From assembly GCA_039630085.1 (NCBI GenBank), contig JBCNVM010000005.1:1-64000 (forward strand): a DNA stretch of 64,000 nt, in the 5' to 3' direction. Below are positions 12,942 through 31,415 of the stretch, in pieces. Source of the stretch: Candidatus Caldarchaeales archaeon (GTDB lineage: Archaea; Thermoproteota; Nitrososphaeria_A; Caldarchaeales; Calditenuaceae). Position 1 is the stretch's first letter, and each line of letters opens with the position of its first letter. Made by a program: the position numbers and the translations under genes. Below the pieces are notes generated by a model, which was given only the letters and a program-made list of their open reading frames with translations, ran no database searches and was not told the origin of the DNA.

Positions 12942-13601
12942 ATGCTGGCGGCGCAGGAGATATCCGAGGGCCTCAGGAAAGCGATGGGCGGCGCGAAGAA
13001 GAGGAAGTTCGTCCAGTCGGTGGAGCTGCAGGTGAACTTCAGGGACATGGATCTGAAGAAGCCGGAGAACAGGTTCACCGAGACGGTCGAGCTGCCGAGG
13101 GGCCTCGGGTCCAGGCCGAGGAGGGTCGCGGTCATCGCGGGCGGTGCGTTGGCGGTCGAGGCCAGGAAGTCATCGAACGTCGACAGGGTCTTCGAGCGGG
13201 AGGAGATCGAGCTGCTGGTGGGCAACAAGAAGGCCGCGAAGAGGCTCGCGAGGGAGTACGACTACTTCTTGGTCGACACGGCCCTGATCTCCCTGACCGC
13301 GAGGGCCCTGGGGTCGGCGCTGGGCTTCGTGGGGAAGGCGCCGGTGCCGGTGCCCGCGGGGACAGACATCGACGCGATGGCGGCGAGGTACAGGCGGAGC
13401 GTGACGGTCAGGGTGAGGAAGAACCCGCAGGCGAACTGTGTGATCGGGTCGGAGGACATGCCAGTTGAGCACCTCCTCGAGAACGCGCAGGCGGTCCTGA
13501 ACAGGGTCGTCGAGAGGCTACCGAAGAGGTGGGCGAACGTCCAGTCGGTCCACCTGAAGCTCTCGATGGGCGAGCCCGTCAGGCTCCCGGTCAGGCAGTA
13601 G
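12942..13601 (+). CDS. rpl1: 50S ribosomal protein uL1
   Basis: 'KRKFVQSVELQVNF.D.DLKKPENR', 'GNKKAAKRLA', 'HLKLSMG'. Confidence 0.95.
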   Translation: MLAAQEISEGLRKAMGGAKKRKFVQSVELQVNFRDMDLKKPENRFTETVELPRGLGSRPRRVAVIAGGALAVEARKSSNVDRVFEREEIELLVGNKKAAKRLAREYDYFLVDTALISLTARALGSALGFVGKAPVPVPAGTDIDAMAARYRRSVTVRVRKNPQANCVIGSEDMPVEHLLENAQAVLNRVVERLPKRWANVQSVHLKLSMGEPVRLPVRQ

Positions 13602-16704: not shown

Positions 16705-17634
16705 GTGAAACGCTGGCACCTCTTCGGGATCCTCGCGATAGGTGCGCTCGCGTTCGTCGCATTCTGGACTCTCTGGGACACGCAGACAAGAGAGGAGCCG
16801 ATCGTGATCGCGATCCAGCCGACCCAGAACCCTGCCGCAATTCTCGAGAGGGCGCAGCAGCTGAAGGAGTACCTGGCAGGAAAGCTCGGCAGACCGGTCG
16901 AGGTCTACGTCCCGACCAGCTACTCGGCGGTGATCGAGGGGCTGAGGTACGGCAACGTCCACGCGGCTATGATGGGTTCCTGGCCCTCTGCGATCGCGGT
17001 GAGGGTCGCGGACGCGGAGGTCTACCTCGCGGAGGTGAGGACGGTGGCGATCGACGGCAGGAGGGTCGAGGGCACGTTCTACTTCTCCTACTGGATCGTT
17101 AGGCAGGACTCGCCTTACGCCGGGCTCGGGGACCTCAGGGGGGAGAGGGTCTGCTTCCCTAGCCCCATCTCATCCTCGGGTTACCTAGCTCCGCTGGCGA
17201 GGATGGTCGAGCTCGGTCTCCTCACGCGGAGGGACGACAAGCCTGTTGACCCGAAGGAGTTCTTCTCCGAGGTCTACTTCGGCGGCGGTTACCAGCAGTG
17301 CTACGAGGCCCTTATGGCGGGGAACGTGGACGTCACCGTGACTGCGGGCGACGTCGCCTACGACCTCTACCAGAAGGTAATGGCGACGACCAAGGTGATC
17401 GAGCAGCAGGGACCGCTGCCGTCCCACACGCTTGTCGTCTCGAGGAGGCTGGACCCGCGGACTAGGGAGCTCTTAGTCTCGGCCTTCGAGGAGCTCGGTA
17501 GGGAGGAGCACAGGGACCTCATGAGGAGGCTGGTCTCCGGGCTCTTCGTCGGGTGGGAGAGGAAGGGCTCGGCGGATCACCTCGCATCCCTGCAAAGGTT
17601 TATCGAGCTGACGGGGCTCGGGTACGACGCCTGA
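16705..17634 (+). CDS. phnD: PhnD/PtxB-family ABC substrate-binding protein
   Basis: N-terminal TM anchor, 'TSYSAVIEGL', 'YFSYWIV...SPY', 'SSSGYLAP'. Confidence 0.85.
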   Translation: MKRWHLFGILAIGALAFVAFWTLWDTQTREEPIVIAIQPTQNPAAILERAQQLKEYLAGKLGRPVEVYVPTSYSAVIEGLRYGNVHAAMMGSWPSAIAVRVADAEVYLAEVRTVAIDGRRVEGTFYFSYWIVRQDSPYAGLGDLRGERVCFPSPISSSGYLAPLARMVELGLLTRRDDKPVDPKEFFSEVYFGGGYQQCYEALMAGNVDVTVTAGDVAYDLYQKVMATTKVIEQQGPLPSHTLVVSRRLDPRTRELLVSAFEELGREEHRDLMRRLVSGLFVGWERKGSADHLASLQRFIELTGLGYDA

Positions 17635-17644
17635 GGGACCCCCG

Positions 17645-18352
17645 TTGAGGATATCGCTGCGGGACGTGAGCTTCGCCTACAGGCGCGGGAGACCGGTCCT
17701 CAGCTCCGTGAGCCTCGACATCGAGTCGGGAGAGGTCCTGATGGTTCTGGGGAGGAGCGGCGTCGGGAAGACCACGCTCCTCAAGCTCGCGGCAGGGCTC
17801 CTGAGGCCCCAGTCCGGTTCGGTCGTGTACGAGGGCCTCCAGGCCGACGGGAAGGGGAGCCGGGCGGTGGCCTACGTCCCGCAGGCGATCGGGATCGTCG
17901 AGAACATCACGGTCCTCGAGAACGCGCTCCTCGGGGCCCTCGGCAGGCTCTCGTTCTTCTCGCAGGTCGTCGGGTCGTTCCCCGAGGAAACGGTCTCACG
18001 GGCGAGGGAGGTCTGCGAGCTGTTGGGCCTAGGGGATCACGTCCACGTCAAGGCGAAGGAGCTGAGCGGCGGGCAGAAGCAGAGGGTCGCGATCGCGAGG
18101 GCGCTGGTGCAGGGCGCGAGGATCGTCCTCGCCGACGAGTTCGTCTCCCAGCTCGACCCCCTGACGGCGCTGGAGGTGCTGGAGCTGACCAGGGACCTTA
18201 GGAAGGAAGGGATCGGGTTCGCGATCACCACGCACGACGTGCACCTCGTCCCGAAGTTCGGCGACAAGGTCGCGGTGATCAGGGACGGCCGGATCGTCCT
18301 TCATAGGGACGCCTCGAGCGCGTCCGTCGAGGAGGTCCTGAGCGTGTTTTGA
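17645..18352 (+). CDS. phnC: PhnC-like ABC ATPase
   Basis: Walker A GRSGVGKT, 'LSGGQKQRVAIARAL', 'LADE..SQLDP', 'ENALLG.LG'. Confidence 0.88.
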   Translation: MRISLRDVSFAYRRGRPVLSSVSLDIESGEVLMVLGRSGVGKTTLLKLAAGLLRPQSGSVVYEGLQADGKGSRAVAYVPQAIGIVENITVLENALLGALGRLSFFSQVVGSFPEETVSRAREVCELLGLGDHVHVKAKELSGGQKQRVAIARALVQGARIVLADEFVSQLDPLTALEVLELTRDLRKEGIGFAITTHDVHLVPKFGDKVAVIRDGRIVLHRDASSASVEEVLSVF

Positions 18353-19116
18353 GGACCGGTTGGCGGACGGGCCCCAACACGGACCTGCTGATCCTCTTGG
18401 GGGTCACGCTGGTCCTGCTCTGGCACTTCGGGGCCTTCAGCCCTAGGACGATCTCCAAGCTCCCGAACCTCGGCCTCTTCCTCGCGAACGCGTTCCCTCC
18501 CGACCCGGAGCCCCTCCCGGTCCTCTTGGTCAGCATGCTCGAGACCGTCCTGATTGCGCTCGCAGGGACGGCCCTCGCGGTCATGGTCTCTGTGCCGCTG
18601 GCGTCGCTGAGCAGCAGGTCCCTCTTCTCACCGCCGGTCACCGGCGTCTTCAGGTTCGTTCTCTCGGTGATCAGGACGATACCCGCGATCCTCTGGGCGC
18701 TCCTCTTCGTCATAACGGTCGGGTTCGGGCCGCTAGCGGGCGTCCTTGGAACCGCGATGTACTCCATCGGGTATCTGGGGAAGCTCCTCTACGAGGCCTT
18801 CGACGCCGTCGACAGGGACGTGCTGGACTCGGTCAGGATCTCGGGCGCGGGCAAGCTGGCGTTAATGAGGTACGTCGTGATCCCCGAGTCCGCGAACTAC
18901 ATCATCAGCCAAGCGATCTTCATGTTCGAGTACAACGTGAGGGCCTCGACGATCCTCGGCCTGGTCGGTGCCGGAGGCATCGGCTTCTACATCCTCTCGT
19001 ACGTCCAGGTCCTAGACTACAGGTCCCTCACGACGGCACTGATCGTGGTCCTGGCCTTCGTAGTGGCGATAGACGTCGCGAGCGGCAGACTGAGGTCGAG
19101 GTTCCTGCCCTCCTGA
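18349..19116 (+). CDS. phnE: PhnE-like ABC permease
   Basis: 'RTIPAILWALLF..VGFGP.AG', 'FEYNVRASTILGLVGAGGIG'. Confidence 0.9.
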   Translation: MRTGWRTGPNTDLLILLGVTLVLLWHFGAFSPRTISKLPNLGLFLANAFPPDPEPLPVLLVSMLETVLIALAGTALAVMVSVPLASLSSRSLFSPPVTGVFRFVLSVIRTIPAILWALLFVITVGFGPLAGVLGTAMYSIGYLGKLLYEAFDAVDRDVLDSVRISGAGKLALMRYVVIPESANYIISQAIFMFEYNVRASTILGLVGAGGIGFYILSYVQVLDYRSLTTALIVVLAFVVAIDVASGRLRSRFLPS

Positions 19117-19136: not shown

Positions 19137-19763
19137 TTAGAACCCCTTCGGCCTGATCGGCCTCCTCCTAGAGTGGAAGCCTCCCGCGTCCTTGAACCTC
19201 TCCTCGGCCCAGACGTTGCCCCGCTCGTGGTAGCCCCCGTTCTCCGGCCTCTCCCAGAACCCGTCCTCGTACTCCTCGATGAACTCGATCTCGTTCAGCC
19301 ACTTCGCGCTCTTCCAGAGGTAGAGGTGGGGGATGAAGGGCCTCGCGGGGAACCCGTTCTCGAGGGGGATGGGCCTCCCGTCGATCCTAAGGGCCACGAT
19401 CGCGTCCTCGTCGAGCGCGTCCTCTATCGGCACGGGCGCGGAGTAACCGTCGAGGCACCTGAACATCACCCACCTGGCATCGGGCTTGACGCCCGCGAGC
19501 TCCGCGAGGTGCCTGATCTGTATTCCCTCCCACTCGACGTCCTTCACCGACCACTTGGTTACGCAGTGGGCGTCCCTGACGTACCTCCTCATCGGCATCC
19601 TGAGCAGCTCTTCGTAGGTGAAGGAGAGCGGCCTCTCGACGAGCCCGGTCACAGAGAGCCTGTAGCTGTTCAGGTCTACCCTCGGTATGCCGAGCGCCGC
19701 ATAGACGATGAAGTCCCTGACGTACCTCTGGCCCGGGGGGAGCCTCCCTTGGACCTGCTCCAT
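19137..19763 (-). CDS. Sulfite-oxidase-family molybdopterin oxidoreductase (YuiH-like)
   Basis: 'RLPPGQ', 'HCVTKWS', '[16 protein letters not shown]', 'GFWE..GYH..G'; the true start is ATG 19763, the C-terminal part of the 734-aa ORF. Confidence 0.9.
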
Positions 19764-19865
19764 GCTCCCCTTCGCCGCGTGCCCCGAGAGATATCGGTTT
19801 GTCCTGGCCGCATATCCGATGCCATCGCCCCTCAAATAAATTAACACCGGCGACGCCCTATTGGC

Positions 19866-21650
19866 ATGGATGCGCAGTACATCAGGGGGCTGGTGGAGGC
19901 CGCGCAGGGCAAGCGGAGGCTCACGCTCCTCCTGAAGGGTGCACAGGTCCTCAACGTCTACTCGGGCGAGGTGGAGGAGGCCGACGTCGGGATTTACGGC
20001 GACAGGGTCGTCTACGTGGGGAGGGACGCGCCGAGCGCGGAGACCGTGCTGAACGTCGAGGGCGTGATCGTGCCGGGCTTCATCGACACCCACCTTCACA
20101 TCGAGAGCAGCATGGTCACCCCCGCCAGGTTCGCGGAGGCCGTCCTCCCGCACGGGACGACGACGGTCTGCGCGGATCCTCACGAGATCGCGAACGTCCT
20201 CGGGATCGAGGGCGTCAGGATGATGCTCGAGAACTCGAGGGGCCTGCCCATGAGGATCACGTACTTCGTGCCGACCTGCGTCCCCGAGTCCGACGCGGTC
20301 ACGGCCGGGGCCGAAATCACCCCGGAGGACGTCGAGAGGGCCCTCGACTGGGAGGGGATAGTCGGGCTGGGCGAGGTGATGGACTTCGAGTCGGTCCTCG
20401 CGGGCCGCGAGAAGTTCATGCGGATCCTCGAGATAGGCTGGAGGAGGAGGTGCGTGATAGACGGCCACTGCGTCCTCCTTTCGGGCGCGAGGCTGAACGC
20501 GTACGTCGCGACGGGCCCCGAGGCGGACCACGAGAACTTCACCGTCGAGTCCGCGGTCGAGAAGCTCAGGAGGGGGATGTACGTCAAGCTCAGGGGACCC
20601 TACATCCTTGACCCGTCGAGGTTCGTGAGGGCGATCGGTTCGCTTCCGAGCCCCTGGGACCGGGTGATCCTGGTGACGGACGACGTGATGCCTGACACGC
20701 TCGCGGAGAGGGGCCATCTGGACTTCGTTGTGAGGTCGATGATCGAAGCCGGCATGGACGAGGTCGAGGCGGTGCGGAGCGTCACGCTGAGGCCCGCGAC
20801 CCACATGAGGATGTTCGAGCTGGGAGCGGTCTCGCCGGGCAAGGTCGCCGACTTGGTCGTCCTCGGGAGCCTGAGGAGGGTCGACGCGAGGATGGTGCTC
20901 TTCGGGGGCAGGGTCGTCGCGAGGGACGGGAGGCTCGTCGTGGACCTCCCCGAGAGGAAGTTCGACAGGAGGGCCCTCGGGACCGTCAAGGTGGGGGAAC
21001 TGAGGCCCGAGGACTTCGAGTTCAGGCCGCCGGTGAGCGACGGCAGGCTGGTCCTGAACGTGATCGAGTTCAGGAGGCCCGACCCCTCGGTCGGGGACGT
21101 CTCGAGGGCGTTCCTCGAGATGATCGTGACGAAGAGGTCGACGGCGGAGGTCGAGGTGAGGGGAGGCAGGGCGATGCTCGGAGACGTGGCGCTGATGGTC
21201 GTCGTGGAAAGGCACAGGCGCACCGGGAAGAGGGGCTACGGGTTCGTGAAGGGCTTCATGGAGAGGGGCGCGATCGCGACGACCGTCGCCCACGACTCCC
21301 ACAACCTCGCGGTCATAGGGACCGACCCGAGGGACATGCACCTCGCGGCGACCGAGGTCGTCAAGTCCGAGGGGGGACTGGTCGCGGTCCTCAACGGCGA
21401 GGTCCTATCGAGGATAGAGCTCCCCATCGCGGGGCTGATGTCAGAGGAGCCGGTGCGGGTCATGGCTGAGAAGATGAAGGGGTTCAGGAAGGCGCTGGAG
21501 AGGCTCGGAGCCATCGACCACCCCTACATGCCGATCGTCTCGCTCCTCACGCTGTCCGTCATCCCCGAGGCCCGCGTCACCGACAAGGGGCTCTTCGACG
21601 TCAACGCGCAGAGGTTCGTGGACCCGGTAGCGGCCGTCGTCCCCGCGTGA
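19866..21650 (+). CDS. ade: Adenine deaminase
   Basis: '[13 protein letters not shown]', 'DPHEIANV.G', 'GLGEVM', 'DGH', 'DHE', 'VAHDSHN', 'LPIAGLMS', 'LSVIPE'. Confidence 0.92.
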
Positions 21651-21660
21651 ACCTGCGGCG

Positions 21661-23061
21661 GTGCGCAATTTGGAGCTGGACCTACTCCTGAGGGACTGCA
21701 GGGTAGCAGACCCGTTCGGGACCTTCGAGTGCGACGTCGGTGTGGAGGGCGGGAAAATCGCGGTCATCGCGAAGTCCGTCGAGGCCCGGGCCGAGAAAGT
21801 GATCGACGCTTCCGGGAAGTTAGTCGTCCCGGGTGCGATAGACGGGCACGTGCACTTTGAGATGCAGTACGGAGGAGGGATCGCGACGGCCGACGACTTC
21901 GACTCCGGGAGCGCGGCGGCCTCGTGCGGCGGTGTCACGACCTTCATCGACTTCGTGACGCCGGAGAGAGGAGGCTCGGTCGTCGGGGCCTTCGAGGAGA
22001 GGCTTGCGGCCGCATCCGCGAGGTCGAGGATCGACTTCGGGCTCCACGTCTGCGTCCTCGAGTGGGGTCCGCGGGTCGAGGCCGAGCTGAACGAGCTCGT
22101 GGGCAGGAGGGGCGTCTCCTCGGTCAAGGTCTTCACGGCCTACAGCAGGAGGGGCCTGATGATCGACGACGGGTCCCTCCTCCGGGCGCTCAGATGGGCC
22201 GCGGGAGCCGGAGTGCTGGTCCTCTGCCACTGCGAGAACGAGTGGATCGTGCTCAGGGAGACCGAGAGGCTCGCGGAGGAGGCGAACGCGGACGTCTCGA
22301 GGTACGAGGAGAGCAGGCCGGCGGTCTCGGAGGCAGAGGCGGTCCTCAGGCTGGGCTACCTCTCGTCCGTGACAGGAGCCGAGGTCCTGGTCGTCCACCT
22401 CACGTCGGGGGCGGGGCTCAAGGCCGCGGAGGCCGCGAGGAGGATTGGAGCGAGGATGCTGGTCGAGACCTGTCCCCACTACCTCGTATTGTCCAAGGAT
22501 GTCTACTCGAGGCCCGACGGCGGACTCTTCGTCATGGCGCCGCCCCTCAGGGCGAAGGAGGACGCTGAGGCCCTCTGGTCAGGGCTCGCCTCGGGCCAGA
22601 TAGACGTCGTGGGGAGCGACCACGCTCCCTACGCGTCGGCCATCAAGCTGAGGTCGAGGGACTTCCGGGAGATACCGGGAGGCGTACAGGGGACCGAGTC
22701 GATCGTCCCGATACTCTTCTCGGAGGGCGTGAGGAAGGGCAGGATAACTCTCGAGGAGTTCGTCCGCCTGACCTCCTATAACCCCGCGAGGGCCTACGGC
22801 CTCTATCCGAGGAAGGGGAGGATTGCGGTGGGCGCCGACGCGGACATCGTCCTGATCGATCCGGAGAGGAGGGTGAGGCTCGGGAGGGACGTCCTCCACA
22901 GCAGGCTCGACTTCTCGATCTACGAGGGGATGGAGGTGACCGGGTATCCGGTGATGACGGTCTCGAGGGGCGAGGTGGTCGCGGAGGACGGAGAGGTAAC
23001 CTCGAGGCCCGGGAGGGGAGTTTACGTCCACAGGGCGACCAAGGCTCAGGGGCCCAAGTAG
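21661..23061 (+). CDS. hydA: Dihydropyrimidinase / D-hydantoinase (HydA/HyuA-like)
   Basis: 'PGAIDGHVH', 'GGVTTFIDF', 'HCEN', 'ETCPHYL', 'PPLR', 'GSDHAP', 'YPRKG.IAVGADAD'. Confidence 0.88.
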   Translation: MRNLELDLLLRDCRVADPFGTFECDVGVEGGKIAVIAKSVEARAEKVIDASGKLVVPGAIDGHVHFEMQYGGGIATADDFDSGSAAASCGGVTTFIDFVTPERGGSVVGAFEERLAAASARSRIDFGLHVCVLEWGPRVEAELNELVGRRGVSSVKVFTAYSRRGLMIDDGSLLRALRWAAGAGVLVLCHCENEWIVLRETERLAEEANADVSRYEESRPAVSEAEAVLRLGYLSSVTGAEVLVVHLTSGAGLKAAEAARRIGARMLVETCPHYLVLSKDVYSRPDGGLFVMAPPLRAKEDAEALWSGLASGQIDVVGSDHAPYASAIKLRSRDFREIPGGVQGTESIVPILFSEGVRKGRITLEEFVRLTSYNPARAYGLYPRKGRIAVGADADIVLIDPERRVRLGRDVLHSRLDFSIYEGMEVTGYPVMTVSRGEVVAEDGEVTSRPGRGVYVHRATKAQGPK

Positions 23062-24311
23062 TGCCTCAGCTGCTTGACGTCCGGCGTTATCAGCGGTATC
23101 TCCCCGACCGTTGGGACGAGCTTCTCGACCTCCTTCAGGCCCGAGCCCGTGACCAGCACGACCGCTTCGTCGGACTCGTCGAGTTGGCCTTCGTCCCTCA
23201 ATCTTATCGCGGCCGCGACACCGACCGCGCCCGAGGGCTCCGCGAAGACGCCAGCCTTACTGGCGAGCAGCCTCACGGCCTCAAGGATCTCCTGGTCGCT
23301 TACCGCGACCGCTGTCCCTCCGGTCCTCCGGATTCCCTCCAACGCCGCGTCGCCGTCCCAAGGATACGGGTCCAGGAGCCCGGAGGCGATCGACTTGGGC
23401 GACCTCTCGGGTTCGACCTCGCTGAAGGAGAGCCCCCTCCTGACGGCCCTCACGAGGGGTTGGTTGCCCTCTGGCTGGACCGCGATCAGCCTCGGCATCT
23501 CGCCCTCCACGAGCCCGAGCTCGACGAGGTCCCTCACGCCCTTCCAGATCCCCGCGAGGAGGCAGCCCGAACCCGTCGGGACGATCACCGCGTCCGGGAA
23601 CCTCCAGCCCAGCTGCTCCGCGACCTCGTAGAGGATGGTCTTGGGGCCCTCGACCTGATAGGGGTTGAAGGGTCCGAAGCTCGGGCAGGGGTACCAGCCG
23701 AACTCGTCGACCGCCATAAGCATCGCCTGGACCGTCGGGTCCTTCCCCTCCTCGACCGCCCTGACCCTGAAAAGCCTCGCACCGTAGGAGAGCAGCTGCG
23801 CGGCCTTCCCCAGCGAGACGCTCTCGGGGACGAACGCGACGCACCTCAGCCCCAAGCTCGCGGCGTAGGCGGCGAGCGCGGATGCCGCGTTCCCGCTGGA
23901 CGCGGTCACGACCGTCTCCACCCCCCACTCGGCGGCCTTCGCGGCTCCCACGGCCATCGCCCTGTCCTTGAACGAGCCCGTCGGATTCCTGGTCTCGTCC
24001 TTCAGCCTCATCCTCCTCAGGCCGAGGTGGTCGTTGAGCCTCCTGGCGCAGAAGAGCGGTGTCAGGCCCTCGTCGAGGGGCGTGCCGAACTCCCTCGCGG
24101 CAGGGAGCAGCTCCCAGTACCTCCAGACCCCTCCGGTCCATGGCCTCTTTGAGACCGTCTCCCGTCTCAGGAACTCCTTCAGCTCCTCGTAGTCGTAGAC
24201 GACGTCGAGCCTCCCCAGGTCCCTCGAGCCGCAGAGGACCGGCCTCTCGGCCGGCAGGTAGCTCCTCCCGCACTTGGAGCAGACCAGCTCGCTGACGAAG
24301 GACAAGCTCAT
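23046..24311 (-). CDS. Threonine-synthase-like PLP enzyme (fold type II)
   Basis: 'NPTGSFKDR' PLP lysine, 'SSGNA', 'PTGSG', 'AEPSGA', 'TGSGLK'; co-transcribed with an amidohydrolase. Confidence 0.85.
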   Translation of the reverse strand: MSLSFVSELVCSKCGRSYLPAERPVLCGSRDLGRLDVVYDYEELKEFLRRETVSKRPWTGGVWRYWELLPAAREFGTPLDEGLTPLFCARRLNDHLGLRRMRLKDETRNPTGSFKDRAMAVGAAKAAEWGVETVVTASSGNAASALAAYAASLGLRCVAFVPESVSLGKAAQLLSYGARLFRVRAVEEGKDPTVQAMLMAVDEFGWYPCPSFGPFNPYQVEGPKTILYEVAEQLGWRFPDAVIVPTGSGCLLAGIWKGVRDLVELGLVEGEMPRLIAVQPEGNQPLVRAVRRGLSFSEVEPERSPKSIASGLLDPYPWDGDAALEGIRRTGGTAVAVSDQEILEAVRLLASKAGVFAEPSGAVGVAAAIRLRDEGQLDESDEAVVLVTGSGLKEVEKLVPTVGEIPLITPDVKQLRHYLGP

Positions 24312-25684
24312 GCACCTCCGCGCAGCGGCTCCACGGCCCTGTGCGGCCCCCCGCCGAGCCTCTCCCAGAGCCTCTCGACCGACCTGAGGACCTTCTCCTC
24401 CGCCTCCCTCTGGTCGACCCTCAGAAGCCTCCCGTCCCTTGCGACGACCTCGCCCCCGACCATCACGAGCCTTACGTCAGAGCCCCTCACGCCGTTGACG
24501 ACGTAGGAGTACGGGTCTCCGGTCAGCGGCGCGGCCATTACCGTCGGCCTCACGACGATGAGGTCCGCGAGCTTCCCGGGCTTCAGGGACCCGAGGTCCC
24601 TCAGTCCGTAAGCCATAGCGGCCCTGACGGTCACCATCTCTAAGACCTCCTTCGCGGAGAGCGCGGTCGGGTCCCTCCTGTGGACCCTGTGGACCAAGAA
24701 CGCGGCCCTGGCGTTCTCGAAGGCGTCGAAGACGTAGCCGTCGTTGCCGAGGCAGACGTTCACGCCCTCCCTGAGCATCTCGGGGACCGGTGAGACCCCG
24801 ACCGCGTTCAGCATGTTGCTCATCGGGTTGTGAGCCACGTTGGTTCCCGTCCTCGCGAGGACCGAGATCTCCTTAGGGGAGAGGTGAACGCAGTGGGCCA
24901 AGACGGCCTTCGGCGAGAGCAGCCCGAGCCCCTCGAGCCTCTCGACGGTCCTCACCCCGTACCTCTCGATGTTGTGGTAGACGTCGTTCGGCCCCTCGGA
25001 GACGTGGACCGTGATCGGGCAATCGAACCGCTCCGAGAGCTCGACGGCCCTCCTGATCAGGTCGTCGGTGACCGTGAAGGACGCGTGGACGCTAACCATC
25101 CCCTTCGCCCTCCTCGAAGCGGAGCTCGAGAGGAACCGCTCGTTCTCCCTGAGCCCCCTCAGGCCCTCCTCGCCGCTCCTCCTCTCTGTGGCCTCGAAGG
25201 AGACCAGGCCCCTGATCCCGACCTCGTCGACAGCCCTAGCTATCGCGTCGAGGGAGCCCTCTATCCCGTTGGGCGCCGAGTAAGTGTCGGCGAAGCAGGT
25301 GGTCCCGGTGAGGGCCATCTCCATGCACGCCGCGAGGGCCGTCGCGTAGGCCGCCTCGTTGTCGAGCCTCTCGTCCAGCGGCCACCAGACCCTCTGGAGG
25401 ATCTGGAGGAAGTCGGAGGGCGGTTCGACCTTGAGGTTCGAGCCCCGCAGCGCGATCCCGTAGAGGTGGGTGTGGCCGCAGATCAGCCCGGGAAGCACGA
25501 AGCAGCCCCTCGCGTCGATGACCTCGTCGGCCTTCGCCCCCCTCGTCACCTCCTCGACCTTTCCGACCGCGGCTATCCTCTCGTCCTCAACCAGTACGGC
25601 CCCTTCCCTGATCACCCCGAGACCCTCGTCCATCGTGACGACCACGCCGCCCCTCACCAGCTTCCTCTCGTGCCCCATCTTCAC
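24308..25684 (-). CDS. Amidohydrolase, SsnA/MtaD family
   Basis: 'PGLICGHTHLY', 'FLQILQRVWWPLD', 'HASFT', 'HVSEG', 'AHCVH', 'HNPMSNMLNAVG', 'LGNDG'. Confidence 0.88.
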   Translation of the reverse strand: MKMGHERKLVRGGVVVTMDEGLGVIREGAVLVEDERIAAVGKVEEVTRGAKADEVIDARGCFVLPGLICGHTHLYGIALRGSNLKVEPPSDFLQILQRVWWPLDERLDNEAAYATALAACMEMALTGTTCFADTYSAPNGIEGSLDAIARAVDEVGIRGLVSFEATERRSGEEGLRGLRENERFLSSSASRRAKGMVSVHASFTVTDDLIRRAVELSERFDCPITVHVSEGPNDVYHNIERYGVRTVERLEGLGLLSPKAVLAHCVHLSPKEISVLARTGTNVAHNPMSNMLNAVGVSPVPEMLREGVNVCLGNDGYVFDAFENARAAFLVHRVHRRDPTALSAKEVLEMVTVRAAMAYGLRDLGSLKPGKLADLIVVRPTVMAAPLTGDPYSYVVNGVRGSDVRLVMVGGEVVARDGRLLRVDQREAEEKVLRSVERLWERLGGGPHRAVEPLRGGA

Positions 25685-25687
25685 ACC

Positions 25688-26695
25688 TCAGAGCGCTGCG
25701 AGGGCCCTAACCGCGTACTCCACGTCCCCGCTCAGCGGCAGGATGAGGGGCGCGGTGCAGCCGTGGGCCATGTACTCCTCGATCTTCCTCTTAACCTCCG
25801 AAGGCGTCCCCGATGCGGTGATGAGCCTCACGACGTCGTCCGGCACGATCTCCATCGCCCTCTCGATCCCGCCCGGCTTCGCAGGCCAACCTCCCATCGC
25901 CCTCTGGACTTCCTCGATCAGGTCCTCGCTCACGCCGCTCGCCTTCATGATGTGGGGCTGCTGGCCGAGGGTCATCGTCACGTGCTTCTTCGCGAGCCTG
26001 ATCGCGTGGTCGCCGTCCTCGTGGATCGAGCAGGCTATCAGCTGGGGCCTGTCGATCTCCTCGAGCCTCCTCCCGGCCTTCGCGGCCCCGGCCTTGATGT
26101 GCTCGATGGCTCTGTCGTTGTAGAGGGGCGAGACTAGGTAGTTGAGGAGGACGCCGTCAGCGATCTCGCCGGAGAGCTCCATCATCTTGAACCCGGTCGC
26201 GCCGATGTAGATAGGGATGTTCCTCGGGACAGGGCCCTTGCCGTGCAGGACGTCGAGCCTGACGCCCCTGAGCTTCACGAACTCGCCCTCGTAGGTCACC
26301 TCCTCCATCCTGAAGAGCCTCCTGATCGCCTCGACGTACTCCCTCATACACGTGAGGGGCTCTTTCCTCTCGATCCCGACCTTCCACGCGAGCGGGTCCC
26401 ACCACGCCCCGAGCCCCAGCAGTATCCTGTCGTCGGCGAGCTCGTCCAGCGTCGCGAAGGTCTGCGCGATCAGGGCCGCGTTCCTGGTCCACGTGTTGAT
26501 GACGCCCGCTCCCACCTTGATCCTCCTAGTAACGGCGGCTATCGCGGTCATCGGGACGATCGCGTCCCTCGAGAGCCTGGACTCCGCGATCCAGACTGAC
26601 TCGAACCCGTGCTCCTCCGCGACCTGCGCGTACCTCATCATGTCCCTGACGTGCATGTCCTGGAGGTAAAGCCCGAGACGGGGTATCGAGCCCAC
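25688..26695 (-). CDS. LLM-class (Mer-like, F420/flavin-dependent) oxidoreductase
   Basis: '[13 protein letters not shown]', 'T.RIKVG.GV', 'ATLDELA..R..LGLG', '[18 protein letters not shown]'. Confidence 0.88.
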
Positions 26696-26781
26696 GCGTT
26701 AAGTCCCTCGCCGCGAGTAATAAGATGGATACCGGTAAGGGCGAGTTAAGCTTTTCACGGTCCGGGAGCAGTGGGGATTCG

Positions 26782-27276
26782 GTGTGGGTCATAGCGGTCT
26801 TCGGGTTCAAGATGGCCGGTAAGACGAGGCTCGCCTCGATGATCGTCTCGGCGCTCAGGTCCATGGGGTACAGGGTCGCGGCCGTGAAGCACGTCCACCA
26901 CGCCGACTTCACGATTGAAAGGGAGGGGTCCGACAGCTGGAGGCTCTACCAGTCCGGCGCCGACCCCGTCATCGTCTCCTCGCCGAGGGAGACAGCGGTG
27001 ATCCATAGGTCCCTGTCTATCAGGGGGATTGAGGACCTGAAGGGGCTCGCCGGCGACGTCGACTTCGTCGTCGTCGAGGGGTTCCAGTCGGTGATGCCCC
27101 AGGACTCCGAGGGCGTCGTCAGGATTAGGGTGCTCAGCAGGGAGGGCGAGGAGGCGGGGCCCAGCGACATCCCGGTCTCCTTCGCGTCCAACCCTGCGGC
27201 GAGGTACGTCCTGCCCGACGAGTTCGGGGAGCTCCTGTCGGAGGTCCTGAGGGCGGTCCGCGGGGGCAGCCGGTGA
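26782..27276 (+). CDS. mobB: Molybdopterin-guanine dinucleotide biosynthesis protein B
   Basis: 'GFKMAGKT', 'VAAVKH.HH', 'G.DSWR', 'VVEGF'; GTG start inferred. Confidence 0.88.
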   Translation: MWVIAVFGFKMAGKTRLASMIVSALRSMGYRVAAVKHVHHADFTIEREGSDSWRLYQSGADPVIVSSPRETAVIHRSLSIRGIEDLKGLAGDVDFVVVEGFQSVMPQDSEGVVRIRVLSREGEEAGPSDIPVSFASNPAARYVLPDEFGELLSEVLRAVRGGSR

Positions 27277-27283
27277 GGCCGCG

Positions 27284-28480
27284 TTGAAGTCACTGAGGCT
27301 CGTGACCCTCGAAGAGGCCAGAAGGGCCGCGGAGGCCGCGGGGTCCCGGAAGACCCTGGATCGGGTCGAGCTGCCGATAGAGGAGGCGGTGGGCCGTATA
27401 GTCGCGGAGCCGGTGTTCTCGAGCACAGACGTCCCGGGGGTCGACAGGGCGGCCCTTGACGGTTTCGCGACCAAGTTCGACTTCTTGGAGAGGAGGGAGG
27501 GTGACGGTGCCGTCAGGCTCAGGCTCTCGGAGGCTCCCGTTGACGGGCCTTGGGCGGTGAGCGTCTTCACCGGGCAGCCGACCCCTCCGGGCTCCGACGT
27601 CGTGATCAGGGCGGAACACGCGAGGCTCGAGGGCCAGACGCTGTACTTCAGGGGAACGGCCGAGAGGTGGGAGAACGTCGAGAGGAGGGGCTCGTTCTTC
27701 GGGGCCGGCGATCCGGTCGTCGAGCGCGGCGATGTCATCAGGCCTCCGCACGTCGCCGTCCTCTCGGAGCTCGGGGTGAGGAGGGTCTCGGTGTACAGGA
27801 GGCCGAGGTGCGCGGTGATCTCGATCGGCGGCGAGCTCCTCGGCGACTCGGGGAGGGCCATCCCGAACGACTACGCCCACGTCGTCGCTTCGTACCTCTC
27901 GCAGATGGGCTGCGGGATCACCTCGATCGAGGCGGTCGGGGACGGAGTCGAGGAGGTGGCGGGCGCGGTGGAGGAGGCTGCGGGCAGAAACGACCTAGTC
28001 GTCACCGTCGGAAGGGCCTCCAGCGGCAGCAACGACGTCGTCCAGAGGGCCTACTCGGGCATGGAGGGCGCGGAGGTCCTCTTCCACGGCGTGAGGCTCC
28101 ACCCCGGCAAGCCTACTGGTCTGGTGATGCTGGGGGAGAAGTGCTGGCTGATACTCCCCGCCTCTCTCACCGCCGCGATCGCCGGCCTCCACCTGATCGG
28201 GGTGCCATACCTGAGGTCCCTTATCGGCCTCAGGACGCCTCCGCCTGAGCTCACGGCCAGGCTGGACGGCGACGCGCCCGGAAGGCCGGGGGTCAGCAGC
28301 GTCTACTTCGTCTCCATCGGGCCCTCAGGAGACGGGGTCGGGGCGAAAGTTCTCCCGAAGGGCGTCAACAACCTCTACACCGCGTCCAAGGCGAACGGAT
28401 TCCTCGTCGTCCCGCCCGGCGCCCACATGGCTTCCGGCGAGGCCGCGAGGCTGACCCTCCTCGGGAGGCTGACTTACTGA
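27284..28480 (+). CDS. moeA: Molybdopterin molybdotransferase MoeA
   Basis: 'DVP..DRAALDGFA', 'TGQPTP', 'HGV.LHPGKP'. Confidence 0.88.
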   Translation: MKSLRLVTLEEARRAAEAAGSRKTLDRVELPIEEAVGRIVAEPVFSSTDVPGVDRAALDGFATKFDFLERREGDGAVRLRLSEAPVDGPWAVSVFTGQPTPPGSDVVIRAEHARLEGQTLYFRGTAERWENVERRGSFFGAGDPVVERGDVIRPPHVAVLSELGVRRVSVYRRPRCAVISIGGELLGDSGRAIPNDYAHVVASYLSQMGCGITSIEAVGDGVEEVAGAVEEAAGRNDLVVTVGRASSGSNDVVQRAYSGMEGAEVLFHGVRLHPGKPTGLVMLGEKCWLILPASLTAAIAGLHLIGVPYLRSLIGLRTPPPELTARLDGDAPGRPGVSSVYFVSIGPSGDGVGAKVLPKGVNNLYTASKANGFLVVPPGAHMASGEAARLTLLGRLTY

Positions 28481-28522
28481 CCGCGTAAGGCTTATCCAGA
28501 CCGAGGGGGTTGGTGCGGTGAG

Positions 28523-28753
28523 ATGCCCGTCCAAGCGTACGTCCTCATACGGACCAGGCCCGGTTACGCGAAGAGGGTCGCCCAGGAGCTCACGAAGGTC
28601 CAAGGATGCCGCGCGGTCTGCAGCGTCACGGGGAGGTACGACGTGATAGCCTTCGTCGAGGCGGCCGACCTGCAGGCGCTCGGGTCCCTGATCGTCGAGC
28701 GCGTCCACGCCGTCGAGGGGGTCGAGAGGACGGAGACCGCGGTCGTCGTTTGA
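28523..28753 (+). CDS. Stand-alone Lrp/AsnC ligand-binding (RAM) domain protein
   Basis: 'AYVLI', 'VTGRYDVIA', 'GVERTET'; no HTH. Confidence 0.88.
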   Translation: MPVQAYVLIRTRPGYAKRVAQELTKVQGCRAVCSVTGRYDVIAFVEAADLQALGSLIVERVHAVEGVERTETAVVV

Positions 28754-28824
28754 CGGCTGGGCGTCAAGACGGCAGGGCACCATACATCACTCTTTTATTG
28801 TTGATCGGCTCTCACTATAACGAG

Positions 28825-30366
28825 TTGACGGCCCCCCAGCAGGTCCCTCTGGTCGAGATGAGGGGGATAACGAAGAGGTTCCCGGGAGGGGTCGTAGCCA
28901 ACGACGGTGTCGACTTCACCCTTTACGCGGGGGAGGTCCACGCGCTGCTGGGCGAGAACGGCGCTGGCAAGACGACGCTGATGAACATACTCTACGGTCT
29001 CTACGGAAAGGACTCGGGCGAGATCCTGATCGAGGGCAAGAGGGTCAACGTGAGGTCGCCCAAGGACGCGATAAGGCACGGACTCGGGATGGTCCACCAG
29101 CAGTTCAAGCTGATCCCCAAGCACACGGTCCTCGAGAACGTCGTCCTGGGGCTGAAGGAGGCCGGGATCGTGCTGGACTACGGCAGGCTGAGGTCGATGC
29201 TATCGGAGCTGGTCGCGAGGTACGGTTGGAACGTCAGCCCCGACGACTACGTCTGGCAGCTCACGGCCTCCCAGAAGCAGCAGGTCGAGATCCTCAAGAT
29301 GCTCGTGAGGAGGGCGAAGGTCCTGATACTCGACGAGCCGACGTCGATCCTCACGCCGCAGGAGACAGCCCAGTTCTTCGAGAGCGTCAGGGCGATGGCG
29401 AACTCGGGGATGGGCGTCGTGCTAGTGACGCACAAGCTCGAGGAGGTGATGAGGGTGAGCGACAGGGTCACGGTGATGAGGAAGGGGAAGGTCGTCGCGG
29501 TCAGGAGGACCTGCGAGGTCTCCATGGGCGAGCTCGTCTCCCTGATGATAGGGAGGGAGGTGGGACTCTCCTACCCGCACGCGTCCCAGCCCTCGCAGGA
29601 GCAGGTCCTGGTGGTGGAGGACCTCCACGTGAGGGACGACAGGGGCCACCTAGCGGTGAAGGGGGTCTCGTTCAGCGTCAGGAGGGGCGAGATCTTCGGG
29701 ATCGCGGGAGTTGCGGGGAACGGCCAGGACGAGCTCCTCGAGGCGATCTACGGCCTCAGGAGGGTCTCGAAGGGGAGGGTGCTCCTCGCGGGGAAGGACG
29801 CGACGAACAGGCACACGTACGACCTGGTCCTCGAGGGCGTCTCGATGATCGTCCCGGAGCCCCAGAAGGGCGTCGGTCTGGGCCTGGAGGTCGCCGAGAA
29901 CCTCCTGCTGAAGTGCTACAGGAGGCCTCCCTACTCGAGGACCGGAGTGCTGAACAGGGACCTGATGAGGAGGAGGGCCGAGGAGCTGATAAGGAGCCTC
30001 TCGATCGTGACGAGGTCCCCGACCGCGAAGGCCCAGACGCTCTCCGGCGGCAACCTCCAGAGGTTGGTGATCGCGAGGGAGCTCTTCGCGTGTCCCGCCG
30101 GCGAGCTGCCGCAGCTCGTCCTCGCGGCTTATCCGACGAAGGGCCTCGACGTCGGTGCGACGGACTTCGTCAGGAGGCTCCTCCTCGACCTGAAGTCCAA
30201 GGGCGTCGCGATCGTCCTCCTCTCCGACGACCTCGAGGAGCTACTCGCGATGAGCGACAGGATAGGCGTGATGTACAAGGGCGAGATGGTCGGAATACTG
30301 GAGAGAGGTTCGGCGAGCCTGGAGCGGGTGGGCGTCATGATGCTGGGAGCCCGGGGCGCGGGTTAG
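28825..30366 (+). CDS. Tandem ABC ATPase of the nucleoside/purine (CUT2/NupA-like) type
   Basis: 'ITKRFPGGVVAND', 'LLGENGAGKTTLM', 'GMVHQ.F', 'LSGGNLQ', 'PTKGLDVGA'; TTG start at 28825 inferred. Confidence 0.9.
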   Translation: MTAPQQVPLVEMRGITKRFPGGVVANDGVDFTLYAGEVHALLGENGAGKTTLMNILYGLYGKDSGEILIEGKRVNVRSPKDAIRHGLGMVHQQFKLIPKHTVLENVVLGLKEAGIVLDYGRLRSMLSELVARYGWNVSPDDYVWQLTASQKQQVEILKMLVRRAKVLILDEPTSILTPQETAQFFESVRAMANSGMGVVLVTHKLEEVMRVSDRVTVMRKGKVVAVRRTCEVSMGELVSLMIGREVGLSYPHASQPSQEQVLVVEDLHVRDDRGHLAVKGVSFSVRRGEIFGIAGVAGNGQDELLEAIYGLRRVSKGRVLLAGKDATNRHTYDLVLEGVSMIVPEPQKGVGLGLEVAENLLLKCYRRPPYSRTGVLNRDLMRRRAEELIRSLSIVTRSPTAKAQTLSGGNLQRLVIARELFACPAGELPQLVLAAYPTKGLDVGATDFVRRLLLDLKSKGVAIVLLSDDLEELLAMSDRIGVMYKGEMVGILERGSASLERVGVMMLGARGAG

Positions 30367-31415
30367 CCCATCACCATGCACATCACCGCCTTCTGGACGT
30401 GCAGCCTGTTCTCGGCCTGCTCGAAGTAGAGCGAGTACTCCGGCTTGTCGATCACGTCGTCCGTGACCTCTTGGCCCCTGTCGGCGGGGCCGCAGTGCAT
30501 GTACCTCCCCCTCCTCGTCAGGTCCATCAGCTCCTGGGTGCAGATCCAGTCCTTGAACCTGTTCTGGTACTCCACCGCGCCCTCCTTGTCGACCCTGCCG
30601 TTGTAGGGCGGGAAGAAGCCCCTCGGCGACCAGGCCTTCGGGTAGACGAAGTCAGCGCCCTCGAAGGCCTCCTTCATGTCGTGGACGACCGTGAAGCTCC
30701 CGCCGTACCTGTCGGCGTTCTCCCTGCAGACCTTGATCACTCCATCCTCCAGCTCGAAGCCCTTCGGGTGGGCGAGGACCACGTCCATTCCGAACATCGT
30801 CCCTATCAGCACGCAGCTCTGTGGGACTGCGAGCGGCTTCAGTCCGCCCGAGTATGCGTAGGAGACGACGAACTTCTTCCCCCTCGGGTTCGGGGCGACG
30901 TCGGTGATGGCCATGATGTCCGCGAGGGCCTGGAACGGGTGATAGAGGTCGTCCTCCATGTTCAGCACCGGTATCGAGCTCCACCTCGCGAACTCCCTAA
31001 CGACCCTGTGGCCCCTCCCGATGTGCCACTTCGCGGCGTCGCCGTAGATCCTGATCGCGATCGCGTCGCCGTACCTGCTCAGCACCCTCGCGACATCGGC
31101 GATCGACTCGGTCTGATAGGGCACCATGTCCTCGGGGAGGGTCGGGGTGTAGACGTCCTGCGGGCTGAGGAAGTGCGCGTGGCCCCCGAGCTGAAATATG
31201 CCCGCCTCGAAGGAGTTCCTGGTCCTTAAGCTCCTGTTGTAGAAGAGCATGAATAGCGTCCTCCCAGGCAGGTAGGGCGTCGGAACCCGGGACCTGAACT
31301 TCTCCCTGAGGTCCCTCGCGGCCCTCAGTACCTCATCGATCTCCTCTTTCGTGAAGTCGTTCGTGTTCAGGAAGGACCTGCCCCTCATGGAGCCCACGTA
31401 GCCCGGAACGCCCAT
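30363..31415 (-). CDS. Knotted-type carbamoyltransferase (YgeW/AOTCase-like), not canonical ArgF
   Basis: 'SLRTRNSF', 'HPFQ', 'SYAYSGGLKPLAVPQS', 'VYPKAWSP', 'YMHCGPAD'; lacks the SMG loop present in the canonical ArgF at the window end. Confidence 0.85.
   Translation of the reverse strand: MGVPGYVGSMRGRSFLNTNDFTKEEIDEVLRAARDLREKFRSRVPTPYLPGRTLFMLFYNRSLRTRNSFEAGIFQLGGHAHFLSPQDVYTPTLPEDMVPYQTESIADVARVLSRYGDAIAIRIYGDAAKWHIGRGHRVVREFARWSSIPVLNMEDDLYHPFQALADIMAITDVAPNPRGKKFVVSYAYSGGLKPLAVPQSCVLIGTMFGMDVVLAHPKGFELEDGVIKVCRENADRYGGSFTVVHDMKEAFEGADFVYPKAWSPRGFFPPYNGRVDKEGAVEYQNRFKDWICTQELMDLTRRGRYMHCGPADRGQEVTDDVIDKPEYSLYFEQAENRLHVQKAVMCMVMG

Follow-up and report, generated by a model that had tools for sequence, protein, structure and literature searches.

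Between positions 19137 and 31415 of a 64,000-nucleotide stretch of a Candidatus Caldarchaeales genome (assembly GCA_039630085.1, contig JBCNVM010000005.1, positions 1 to 64,000; the whole stretch is referred to as the window) lies what is probably the core of an archaeal variant of the reductive 2,8-dioxopurine ('yanthine') pathway, the genes of which are split over at least four loci in the genome. From the predicted proteins and their relatives we put the probability of this reading at roughly 0.62. At the centre stands a unit encoding an LLM (luciferase-like) oxidoreductase, an SsnA-like amidohydrolase and a pyridoxal phosphate (PLP) fold-II enzyme of the threonine synthase (ThrC) family. 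That this cluster is the archaeal counterpart of the bacterial ssnA/hyuA/ygeW purine-ring pathway had been proposed from the letters of the DNA and its open reading frames (ORFs) alone (the sequence-only reading). The proposal is supported by the gene identities, family placements, operon geometry, conservation, co-distribution and lost ThrC residues observed here.

The bacterial route has been established in two studies (Li et al., 2025, PMC12507026; Liu et al., 2025, bioRxiv 10.1101/2025.04.24.650524). According to their main texts an Xdh homologue (XdhD-YgfM or XdhAC) converts urate to 2,8-dioxopurine, the ring is reduced by YgfK or by the PydA-like UacX, and SsnA then opens it to give ureidomethyl-hydantoin. 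The product of HyuA is 2,3-diureidopropionate. Its two ureido groups are removed by YgeW (by phosphorolysis, together with the carbamate kinase YqeA) or UacY and then by YgeY, after which YgeX converts diaminopropionate to pyruvate. The main texts of the two papers disagree on which ureido group is removed by YgeW. The reductase and SsnA must act together, as stated in the main text of Li et al. (2025).

Gene content of the cluster and its conservation

The genes of the window were called from the ORF listing and from scans with Pfam and NCBIfam profiles. The cluster and the genes beside it are as follows.

19137-19799, minus strand: small molybdopterin-domain gene of the sulfite-oxidase/MsrP type (PF00174, E 8.5e-42; NCBIfam matches all far under their cut-offs)
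19866-21650, plus strand: adenine-deaminase-family amidohydrolase (Adenine_deam_C, E 6e-53; TIGR01178 437.9, under the cut-off of 472.5)
21661-23061, plus strand: D-hydantoinase/dihydropyrimidinase, counterpart of HyuA (TIGR02033 445.2, over the cut-off of 393.25)
23046-24311, minus strand: ThrC-like PLP fold-II enzyme (ThrCl; PALP, E 4e-76)
24308-25684, minus strand: SsnA-like amidohydrolase (top NCBIfam family SsnA, 350.7, under 444)
25688-26695, minus strand: LLM oxidoreductase (PF00296, E 4.6e-70, 236.9 bits)
26725-27276, plus strand: MobB (TIGR00176 93.2, over the cut-off of 76.2)
27284-28480, plus strand: MoeA-type molybdopterin molybdotransferase (MoeA_N and MoCF_biosynth domains)
28606-30366, plus strand: tandem ABC (ATP-binding cassette) ATPase of a BMP/PnrA-type (nucleoside/purine-type) importer (two ABC_tran domains)
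30363-31415, minus strand: carbamoyltransferase CT1 (NF003384, N-acetylornithine carbamoyltransferase, 274.7, under 288)

The minus-strand unit, in the order LLM, SsnA-like, ThrC-like, converges on the deaminase-hydantoinase pair, in which the end of the first gene and the start of the second are 10 nucleotides (nt) apart. The LLM stop is separated from the SsnA start by 3 nt, and the SsnA stop overlaps the ThrC-like start in ATGA. This spacing fits a single transcript with translational coupling and bears out the operon that had been described before. Every gene that the sequence-only reading had listed was present in its place. Its adenine deaminase was retained as well, but the first 660 bases of the described range (19137-19799) proved to be a separate molybdopterin gene and no part of the deaminase. 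This small gene is peripheral and its place in the pathway is uncertain; among the related loci it was kept beside the deaminase only in L001 (59%) and L017 (79%). Homologues of YgfK, DpaL and YgeY, which had been noted as absent from the window before, were not found there with the profile scans and with E. coli protein queries either.

SsnA was the best-scoring family for the SsnA-like protein. The window gene was also the reciprocal best match of E. coli SsnA (28.7% identity, E 1e-44), while the best match of E. coli GuaD in the genome was a paralog on contig C56. In a tree of 36 rows a clade of 22 rows united the archaeal and bacterial LLM-linked proteins with E. coli SsnA (SH-aLRT 99) and excluded both GuaD and the C56 paralog. 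The phylogenetic check that had been suggested for this gene thus places the window protein with E. coli SsnA, an enzyme that was assayed on reduced 2,8-dioxopurine (Li et al., 2025, main text). In related loci and in the genome itself the SsnA-like gene is joined to the presumed ring reductase and is found near genes for Xdh, HyuA, carbamoyltransferase and carbamate kinase. E. coli HyuA found its best match in the genome in the hydantoinase of the window (36% identity, E 8e-72); a hydantoinase paralog on C34 is dihydroorotase/allantoinase-like.

A query with the SsnA-like protein fetched 21 loci, 20 of them archaeal; 17 contain DNA upstream of SsnA. LLM lies directly upstream of SsnA in 16 of these 17, the exception being a Conexivisphaerales metagenome-assembled genome (MAG; L018). 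A deaminase of the same family adjoins LLM-SsnA in 16 of the 20 related archaeal loci, and the ThrC-like gene follows SsnA directly in five loci and about 5.7 kb downstream in eight Caldarchaeum loci. A gene arrangement that recurs in 20 related archaeal loci goes far beyond what chance would give. It is contiguous in Caldarchaeum locus L009, which encodes two permeases, a tandem ATPase, a Bmp protein, adenine deaminase, LLM and SsnA, followed by the Xdh FAD, FeS and Mo subunits, CT2, carbamate kinase, the ThrC-like enzyme, a V4R ORF, a CysK-like protein and CT1. There the deaminase scored 573.8 with TIGR01178, over the cut-off, the carbamate kinase 431.8 with TIGR00746 (cut-off 358) and the CysK-like protein 359.8 with TIGR01139 (cut-off 351). 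One or two small V4R (small-molecule-binding) ORFs lie between the CysK-like and ThrC-like genes of this locus (18277-18760, minus strand) and may represent a regulator or a frameshifted gene.

Several parts of the proposed pathway were located outside the cluster.

C2:10209-14833: operon of XdhFAD, XdhFeS and XdhMo, then carbamate kinase (TIGR00746 413.6, over the cut-off of 358.25)
C2:41422-42438: second carbamoyltransferase, CT2 (77% identical to Caldarchaeum CT2)
C64:61290-64512: two permeases and a Bmp binding protein, no ATPase there
C12:20746-21759: CysK-like gene, apart from the cluster genes
63543-64472 of the contig: true ornithine carbamoyltransferase (TIGR00658 362.0, over the cut-off of 280.85), separate from CT1

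It had been predicted that Xdh and carbamate kinase would have to be sought elsewhere in the genome, and both were found in the single operon on C2. The carbamate kinase is 47% identical to E. coli YqeA. What had been called a nucleoside-type ABC ATPase is the ATPase of a BMP/PnrA-type importer, the orthologs of which in L009 and L005 stand in an operon with a Bmp binding protein and two permeases. As the set on C64 is without an ATPase, the window ATPase is taken as its detached partner. MobB and MoeA occur at this position only in the window and in its closest relative, L017, and not in the other related loci; they therefore appear to be a lineage-specific insertion outside the conserved cluster, although MoeA may serve the Mo-hydroxylases. 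The PhnD-type ABC genes at 16705-19116 were set aside as cluster members, since they are kept only in the closest relatives.

Two variations on the module were observed. A paralogous LLM2 (about 50% identical) lies beside an SsnA-clade paralog, SsnA2 (36%), in Caldarchaeum locus L122 (G008:C1:354000-373999, about 7530-13504). The pair also adjoins a further amidohydrolase and an Xdh-like gene, which suggests a reductase-hydrolase module duplicated for another ring. Besides, two genomes of genus g4 are without LLM and SsnA. Their module (L118, 4924-17226, equal to L157) consists of carbamate kinase, CT1, the CysK-like and ThrC-like genes, a hydantoin racemase, a cyclic amidohydrolase, an ECF-type importer and CT2, and a nucleoside-phosphorylase-family gene adjoins it. 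This indicates that the lower half of the pathway is able to stand alone; in g4 it is perhaps fed by an imported intermediate.

The reductase position and the LLM clade

The ThrC-like clade was detected by a motif scan in at least 244 archaeal species genomes, and the genes around it were counted in 80 loci. LLM is present in 14 of these loci and a UacX-like gene in 19; no locus has both. In 14 Desulfurococcales loci the order is CT2-CT1-carbamate kinase-SsnA-[PydA/UacX-type reductase]-ThrC-like, the reductase consisting of DHO_dh with two 4Fe-4S motifs. Neither LLM nor Xdh was found within 10 kb of these operons (e.g. Zestosphaera L196, 3983-11275). In G014, the sole Caldarchaeales genome with SsnA but without LLM, a UacX-like gene adjoins CT2 and the ThrC-like gene, and in the genome of the window no YgfK- or UacX-like gene was found. 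LLM and UacX thus displace each other in the same operon slot, which is the strongest argument for LLM as the ring reductase. The comparative evidence therefore agrees with the suggestion of the sequence-only reading that LLM is a non-orthologous ring reductase. The predicted SsnA-LLM complex scored 0.00, against a mark of 0.32, and weighs neither way.

In a protein search the best 120 rows were all LLM homologs, with identities of 60-87%, and a clade-specific pattern scan found close orthologs (56-82% identity) in at least 583 species genomes. The best 80 LLM loci are from Nitrososphaerota, Bathyarchaeia, Halobacteriales, Chloroflexota, Acidobacteriota, Actinomycetota and other phyla. Neighbours were counted in these 80 loci, of which 42 have full flanks (at least 8 kb on both sides). 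An SsnA-like gene is present in 45 of the 80 and in 29 of the 42, the Xdh large subunit in 35 and the ThrC-like gene in 23, all 23 with SsnA; YgfK is present in none, YgeX in one and a YgeY-like gene in four. The LLM clade is therefore strongly enriched beside purine and ureide genes and is not accompanied by YgfK (0 of 80 loci), in line with the co-occurrence that had been anticipated. The same strong enrichment is seen for the ThrC-like clade. Of the outcomes that had been named as refuting, an LLM clade not enriched near purine genes is thus contradicted, and so is a PLP enzyme that is the sole ThrC (see below).

The eight best relatives of LLM in the PDB are Mer (six) and Fgd (two), all F420 enzymes, with 61-170 bits, against at most 52 bits for enzymes that use flavin mononucleotide (FMN). 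In Mer-type relatives F420H2 is the hydride donor to a C=N-type centre. Eleven bacterial LLM loci were annotated, ten without a pathway neighbour and L064. In four of them genes for F420 biosynthesis or Fno lie directly beside LLM (CofD and CofC in L064, CofD in L059, Fno and CofE in L103, CofC in L078), and in three, from Acidobacteria, an Amidohydro_3 protein adjoins it. On the basis of these relatives LLM is probably F420H2-dependent.

The ThrC-like enzyme and the carbamoyltransferases

Three ThrC-family genes are present in the genome, with TIGR00260 scores of 296.6 (C64), 286.0 (C17) and 193.0 (window). The C64 paralog (C64:69241-70488) keeps all canonical ThrC motifs. The search for a second thrC that had been recommended thus yielded two further paralogs, one of them fully canonical, and the PLP enzyme of the window is not the only ThrC of its genome. 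The C17 paralog (L107, 4575-7133) has a motif set of its own (ASTGNL, NLRPYY) and directly follows a LysX/RimK-like ATP-grasp gene.

The window protein passes two ThrC cut-offs (NF006050 322.7, over 303; TIGR00260 193.0, over 167.1). By alignment to solved ThrCs the positions K61, T88, N154, S155, R160 and N188 (T. thermophilus numbering) were assigned, and in the clade of the window protein T88 is changed to A, N154 to F, S155 to G, R160 to Q and N188 to S. T88, N154/S155 and R160 are replaced in 14 of 14 cluster-linked sequences; the four residues are kept in five of five canonical paralogs and in four ThrCs from the PDB. The bacterial cluster-linked proteins are also without T88 and R160. 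We take T88, N154, S155 and R160 to be ligands of the substrate phosphate; the numbering was checked here, and a paper listing these ligands was not found. Their roles are said to have been described by Omi and co-workers in 2003. In a tree of 25 rows the archaeal cluster-linked, bacterial cluster-linked, canonical and C17-type proteins each formed a fully supported split.

Among the 80 loci centred on the ThrC-like clade, 40 of which have full flanks, 56 contain a carbamoyltransferase, 34 two of these and 36 a carbamate kinase. SsnA-like and CysK-like genes are each present in 35, and YgeX in none. At least one pathway gene was found in 37 of the 40 loci with full flanks. The window protein itself is not a member of YgeX/DpaL (52.5 against the NF006058 cut-off of 276).

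CT1 had been described as a knotted, YgeW-like carbamoyltransferase. It does not belong to YgeW, however (TIGR03316 149.5 against 500; NF005538 155.4 against 453), and resembles it only loosely. Its best solved relative is N-acetylornithine carbamoyltransferase (AOTCase, 3M5C, 209.8 bits), with YgeW (3Q98) at 139.9 bits, and its context is ureide catabolism and not arginine synthesis. CT1 aligns without gaps over the loop region of the knotted AOTCase, a hint of a trefoil knot that is only suggestive.

The phyletic pattern was determined in 61 Caldarchaeales genomes. As these are kin and not independent, it is given without a test statistic.

LLM orthologs (at least 79% identity): 24 of 61 genomes; no weaker matches
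SsnA orthologs (at least 62% identity): the same 24 genomes; in addition G014 at 53%
ThrC-like orthologs (at least 60% identity): 27 of 61 genomes, including all 24 with LLM and SsnA; in addition G014 at 50%
CT1 orthologs (at least 80% identity): the same 27 genomes as ThrC-like; in addition G014 at 61% and G060 at 56%
CT2 orthologs (at least 76% identity): 24 genomes; in addition three at 53-55%

CT2 is present in 27 of the 28 genomes with a ThrC-like gene, the sole miss being a genome that is 66% complete. The 33 genomes without a ThrC-like ortholog are also without ortholog-level LLM, SsnA and CT2, and one of them (G060) has the 56% CT1-like match. Other ThrC paralogs are kept in 61 of 61. 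By genus, the full set is present in five genera and absent from seven. The distribution of the ThrC-like gene thus matches that of the carbamoyltransferases even better than that of LLM and SsnA.

DpaL, YgeY over its cut-off and YgfK over its cut-off were each found in none of the 61 genomes, and weak M20 matches do not follow the module. Two candidates on contig C1 were rejected: an M20 peptidase as YgeY, being a LysK-type deacylase (NF001747 294.2, over 288), and a PALP gene as DpaL, being threonine-dehydratase-like. The four LLM loci with a YgeY-like gene have one carbamoyltransferase each, and three of them carry the ThrC-like gene as well. A YgeY-like gene is absent from the three LLM loci in which a scripted count gave two carbamoyltransferases. 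YgeX and the ThrC-like gene were never found in the same locus, whether LLM-centred or ThrC-like-centred, and the only one of the best 80 LLM loci with YgeX has no ThrC-like gene. These patterns of co-occurrence, small in number, suggest that CT2 takes the place of YgeY and that YgeX is replaced by the ThrC-like enzyme, perhaps aided by the CysK-like one. It is more likely that the replacements are of this kind: the ThrC-like enzyme for YgeX and a second carbamoyltransferase for YgeY.

Proposed pathway, its alternatives and related systems

All substrates, the cofactor and the order of the steps are what we infer from these genes. Purines or nucleosides would be taken up by the BMP-type ABC importer, of which the ATPase is encoded in the window and the rest on C64. 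The adenine-deaminase-family enzyme, as entry for aminopurines, and Mo-hydroxylases (the C2 Xdh operon) would then supply the oxopurine. LLM would move a hydride, probably from F420H2, onto the purine ring. Its target would be C6=N1 of 2,8-dioxopurine, giving the CH2 later seen in ureidomethyl-hydantoin, a reduction that resembles that of the iminium centre by Mer. The translationally coupled SsnA would open the reduced pyrimidine ring, and the hydantoinase would open the imidazolone ring to give 2,3-diureidopropionate. From this CT1 (window) and CT2 (C2) would remove both ureido groups by phosphorolysis, giving carbamoyl phosphate, which the carbamate kinase of the C2 Xdh operon would use to form ATP. 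The ThrC-like enzyme, possibly with a CysK-like partner, would finally convert 2,3-diaminopropionate to pyruvate and ammonia in the place of YgeX.

A number of observations weigh against this scheme. The SsnA-like protein lies below the curated cut-offs of its best-scoring family (NF005540 350.7 against 444; TIGR03314 323.8 against 455.5). CT1 and CT2 lie under every curated cut-off, the nearest being NF003384 (274.7 and 219.4 against 288), and LLM under that of every named F420-LLM subfamily (best TIGR03555, Mer, 201.8 against 348.7). Seven types of pathway gene were counted around LLM (for SsnA, the Xdh large subunit, carbamoyltransferase, carbamate kinase, deaminase, the ThrC-like enzyme and hydantoinase), and in 12 of the 42 fully flanked loci all seven are missing; L018 has an SsnA ortholog with neither reductase type within 10 kb. 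In three Anaerolineae loci (L103, 8366-12147; L082; L088) LLM adjoins a PydA-like DHO_dh/4Fe-4S gene, and an SsnA-like gene was not found in these loci. The PydA-like protein is 40% identical to the archaeal UacX-like one, and L103 has Fno and CofE immediately upstream. Such a setting does not agree with a simple rule by which LLM replaces UacX, and the LLM clade may therefore have no single role.

The cofactor raises a further difficulty. The search for cof genes that had been advised brought to light CofD (285.9, over 257.45; C4:4164-5063) and CofE (297.6, over 180.65; C2:25565-26302), but a search of the genome (89.9% complete) gave no FO synthase, neither CofG nor CofH. CofH was detected in one of the 61 Caldarchaeales genomes, as against 52 of 61 for CofE, and it is absent from every genome that is at least 90% complete, including a one-contig genome that is 99% complete. 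It seems that Caldarchaeales build the tail of F420 without making its deazaflavin head. F420 would then need scavenged FO, or another cofactor would be used. In the lower half, the best tree does not join the archaeal cluster-linked ThrC-like proteins to the bacterial ones as sister groups, although a joint clade was not rejected (approximately unbiased test, p 0.141). ThrC-like and CysK-like genes travel together in many lineages, so that the division of roles is ambiguous, and the CysK-like gene on C12 may simply be the housekeeping CysK.

The alternatives differ in the enzyme that they reassign. The pathway could be the same with a ThrC-like enzyme that beta-eliminates urea or carbamate from albizziin (3-ureido-alanine), in which case one carbamoyltransferase cut would suffice and a step of the YgeY type could be dispensed with. 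As a beta-substituted alanine, albizziin is a natural type of substrate for fold-II PLP enzymes. YgeY over its cut-off is missing from all 61 Caldarchaeales genomes, and the loss of the presumed phosphate ligands would lead one to expect a non-phosphate leaving group. This route is nevertheless unlikely, given that CT2 accompanies the ThrC-like gene in all but the one incomplete genome mentioned above, that two carbamoyltransferases lie beside it in 34 of 80 loci and that it is present in three of the four LLM loci with a YgeY-like gene, where it does not do away with the need for YgeY. Of the two roles that had been offered for the PLP enzyme, elimination from diaminopropionate is thus favoured, and direct action on albizziin, with the need for YgeY removed, is weakened. 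A still smaller share of belief goes to an ordinary threonine synthase that merely happens to lie beside ssnA. The two NCBIfam cut-offs that the protein passes speak for such an enzyme, but it is very improbable in view of the canonical ThrC at C64:69241-70488 (TIGR00260 296.6), the four replaced residues, the conserved linkage to carbamoyltransferases and the absence of orthologs from 33 of 61 genomes, all of which keep other ThrC paralogs.

Other doubts concern the ring. Instead of purines, the genes might serve to break down a different ureide or N-heterocycle, such as a 5-substituted hydantoin taken up from outside, a pyrimidine or a pterin-like ring, on which LLM and SsnA would then act. 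This appears rather unlikely. It would account for the g4 module, which has a hydantoin racemase and an ECF-type importer but neither LLM nor SsnA, for the LLM2-SsnA2 pair in Caldarchaeum and for the three bacterial loci that pair LLM with a PydA-like gene. The recurrent neighbours, however, are adenine deaminase, Xdh-type Mo-hydroxylases and BMP importers, and the gene adjoining the g4 module is of the purine-nucleoside-phosphorylase family; this module fits the uptake of a downstream purine intermediate equally well. Furthermore, the SsnA clade includes the E. coli enzyme with its reported activity on reduced 2,8-dioxopurine (Li et al., 2025, main text). The missing FO synthase, the LLM loci without counted pathway genes, the three loci with a PydA-like neighbour and the scores below all F420-LLM subfamily models could also mean that LLM has an FMN- or F420-dependent accessory role (another redox step or cofactor recycling), with the ring being reduced by another enzyme. 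We consider this quite improbable. LLM is tightly spaced to SsnA and upstream of it in 16 of 17 loci, it and the UacX-type gene exclude each other from the same operon slot, the genome yielded no YgfK- or UacX-like gene, and the published requirement that reductase and SsnA act together (Li et al., 2025, main text) argues in the same direction.

The reductive 2,8-dioxopurine pathway may be part of a wider system. Under a more encompassing reading, which is held tentatively and is doubtful as a whole, at least six archaeal lineages (Nitrososphaerota including Caldarchaeales, Bathyarchaeia, Desulfurococcales, Methanomethylicota, a Korarchaeia-type lineage and Halobacteriales) would share an undescribed lower purine/ureide branch. 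In this branch two dedicated carbamoyltransferases would take both ureido groups off 2,3-diureidopropionate by phosphorolysis, and a ThrC-derived enzyme, usually with a CysK-derived one, would finish the route instead of DpaL. The reductases would be interchangeable, an F420-type LLM in aerobic or facultative organisms and a ferredoxin-type PydA/UacX in strict anaerobes, and the Caldarchaeales LLM would run on F420 made from scavenged FO. If this is true, two ATP per ring instead of one would be obtained via carbamate kinase, a higher yield of ATP from purines. The proposed pathway itself would extend a route known only from gut and soil bacteria to thermophilic and other archaea. It would give a first function to a widespread and highly conserved LLM clade (the at least 583 species genomes mentioned above), usually mislabelled 'methylene-H4MPT reductase', and to the ThrC paralog clade of at least 244 archaeal species genomes, mislabelled 'threonine synthase'. 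Non-orthologous displacement would have occurred at three steps: the reductase, ureido cleavage and the terminal lyase. The reading also corrects annotations by which metabolic models of Aigarchaeota would be distorted.

Markers of archaea are encoded in the window, namely tRNA-intron endonuclease, proteasome, STT3 and an archaeal PEP carboxylase. A haloarchaeal origin, suggested at first by a G+C content of 65%, was dropped once the SsnA-like protein proved to have its nearest public relatives in Caldarchaeales (Aigarchaeota) MAGs of Calditenuis, Pelearchaeum and Caldarchaeum. The genome comprises 1.41 Mb in 66 contigs (89.9% complete, 0.05% contaminated) and encodes reverse gyrase, cytochrome b and a Rieske protein, which implies a thermophilic host with respiratory genes. 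The word 'anaerobic' in the sequence-only reading is weakened by the latter two proteins. Five Xdh-type large-subunit genes were counted in the genome in all. One more Xdh-type Mo-hydroxylase of three subunits is encoded at C56:37738-42697 (L114), next to a guanine/8-oxoguanine-deaminase-like amidohydrolase. Elsewhere in the window, 1461-12153 holds a type III CRISPR-Cas effector locus with Csx1 (HEPN), a Cas_NE0113 protein, several RAMP genes and Cas10. A HEPN-domain gene adjoins a nucleotidyltransferase gene at 38327-39119 and looks like a HEPN/MNT toxin-antitoxin pair, and at 44890-48886 (minus strand) an ETF-ubiquinone oxidoreductase-like gene is followed by both electron-transfer-flavoprotein subunits.

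The oxidative urate route, from allantoin to a carbamoyltransferase, was dropped after a search of the genome gave no uricase and no OHCU decarboxylase. It is represented by the ureidoglycine carbamoyltransferase of Rubrobacter xylanophilus (Barba et al., 2013, PMC4016543), which is described as lying next to a carbamate kinase and catalysing the phosphorolysis of a purine-derived ureide. This enzyme is a precedent for the pairing of a catabolic carbamoyltransferase with carbamate kinase, but it differs in acting on allantoate, in the oxidative route. With Mer, its closest solved relative (8QQ8, 170.5 bits), LLM has the TIM-barrel LLM fold in common; it differs in lying below the Mer model cut-offs (201.8 against 348.7 and 200.4 against 276) and in its purine/ureide gene context, from which the 12 loci noted above depart. 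Likewise, the window ThrC-like enzyme has the fold-II PLP family, the lysine motif GSFKDR and the length in common with ThrC of T. thermophilus (1UIM/1V7C) and A. aeolicus (2ZSJ), but forms a separate clade and is linked to carbamoyltransferases and not to thr genes.

For bacteria the idea of an LLM reductase is not new, as it was proposed for Chloroflexota in one sentence of inference in the main text of Li et al. (2025, PMC12507026). The Chloroflexota variant has the same LLM clade, the Anaerolineae orthologs being 57-63% identical and lying beside SsnA, Xdh, ThrC-like and CysK-like genes. The main text of that paper covers bacteria only, counts any PF00291 neighbour as 'YgeX' and contains the words archaea and threonine 0 times. 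An archaeal form, a role for a ThrC-like enzyme and twin carbamoyltransferases were found neither in a literature search nor in the two pathway papers, supplements aside. New here are the archaeal displacement between LLM and UacX, the order-wide co-distribution table, the lost ThrC residues and an order without FO synthase.

Unlike the 'yanthine' pathway of E. coli and Clostridium, the archaeal system has LLM (probably with F420) in place of YgfK/UacX. Its CT1 and CT2 are not YgeW members, YgeY is lacking and the second carbamoyltransferase probably serves for that step, and a ThrC-derived enzyme, often with a CysK-like one, stands in the place of YgeX/DpaL. The genes are scattered over several loci of a thermophilic archaeal host with respiratory genes. 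Both systems nevertheless have in common an SsnA-clade amidohydrolase, a HyuA-type hydantoinase, an Xdh-type Mo-hydroxylase, a carbamoyltransferase and carbamate kinase for ATP, a reductase gene joined to ssnA and a terminal PLP fold-II enzyme.

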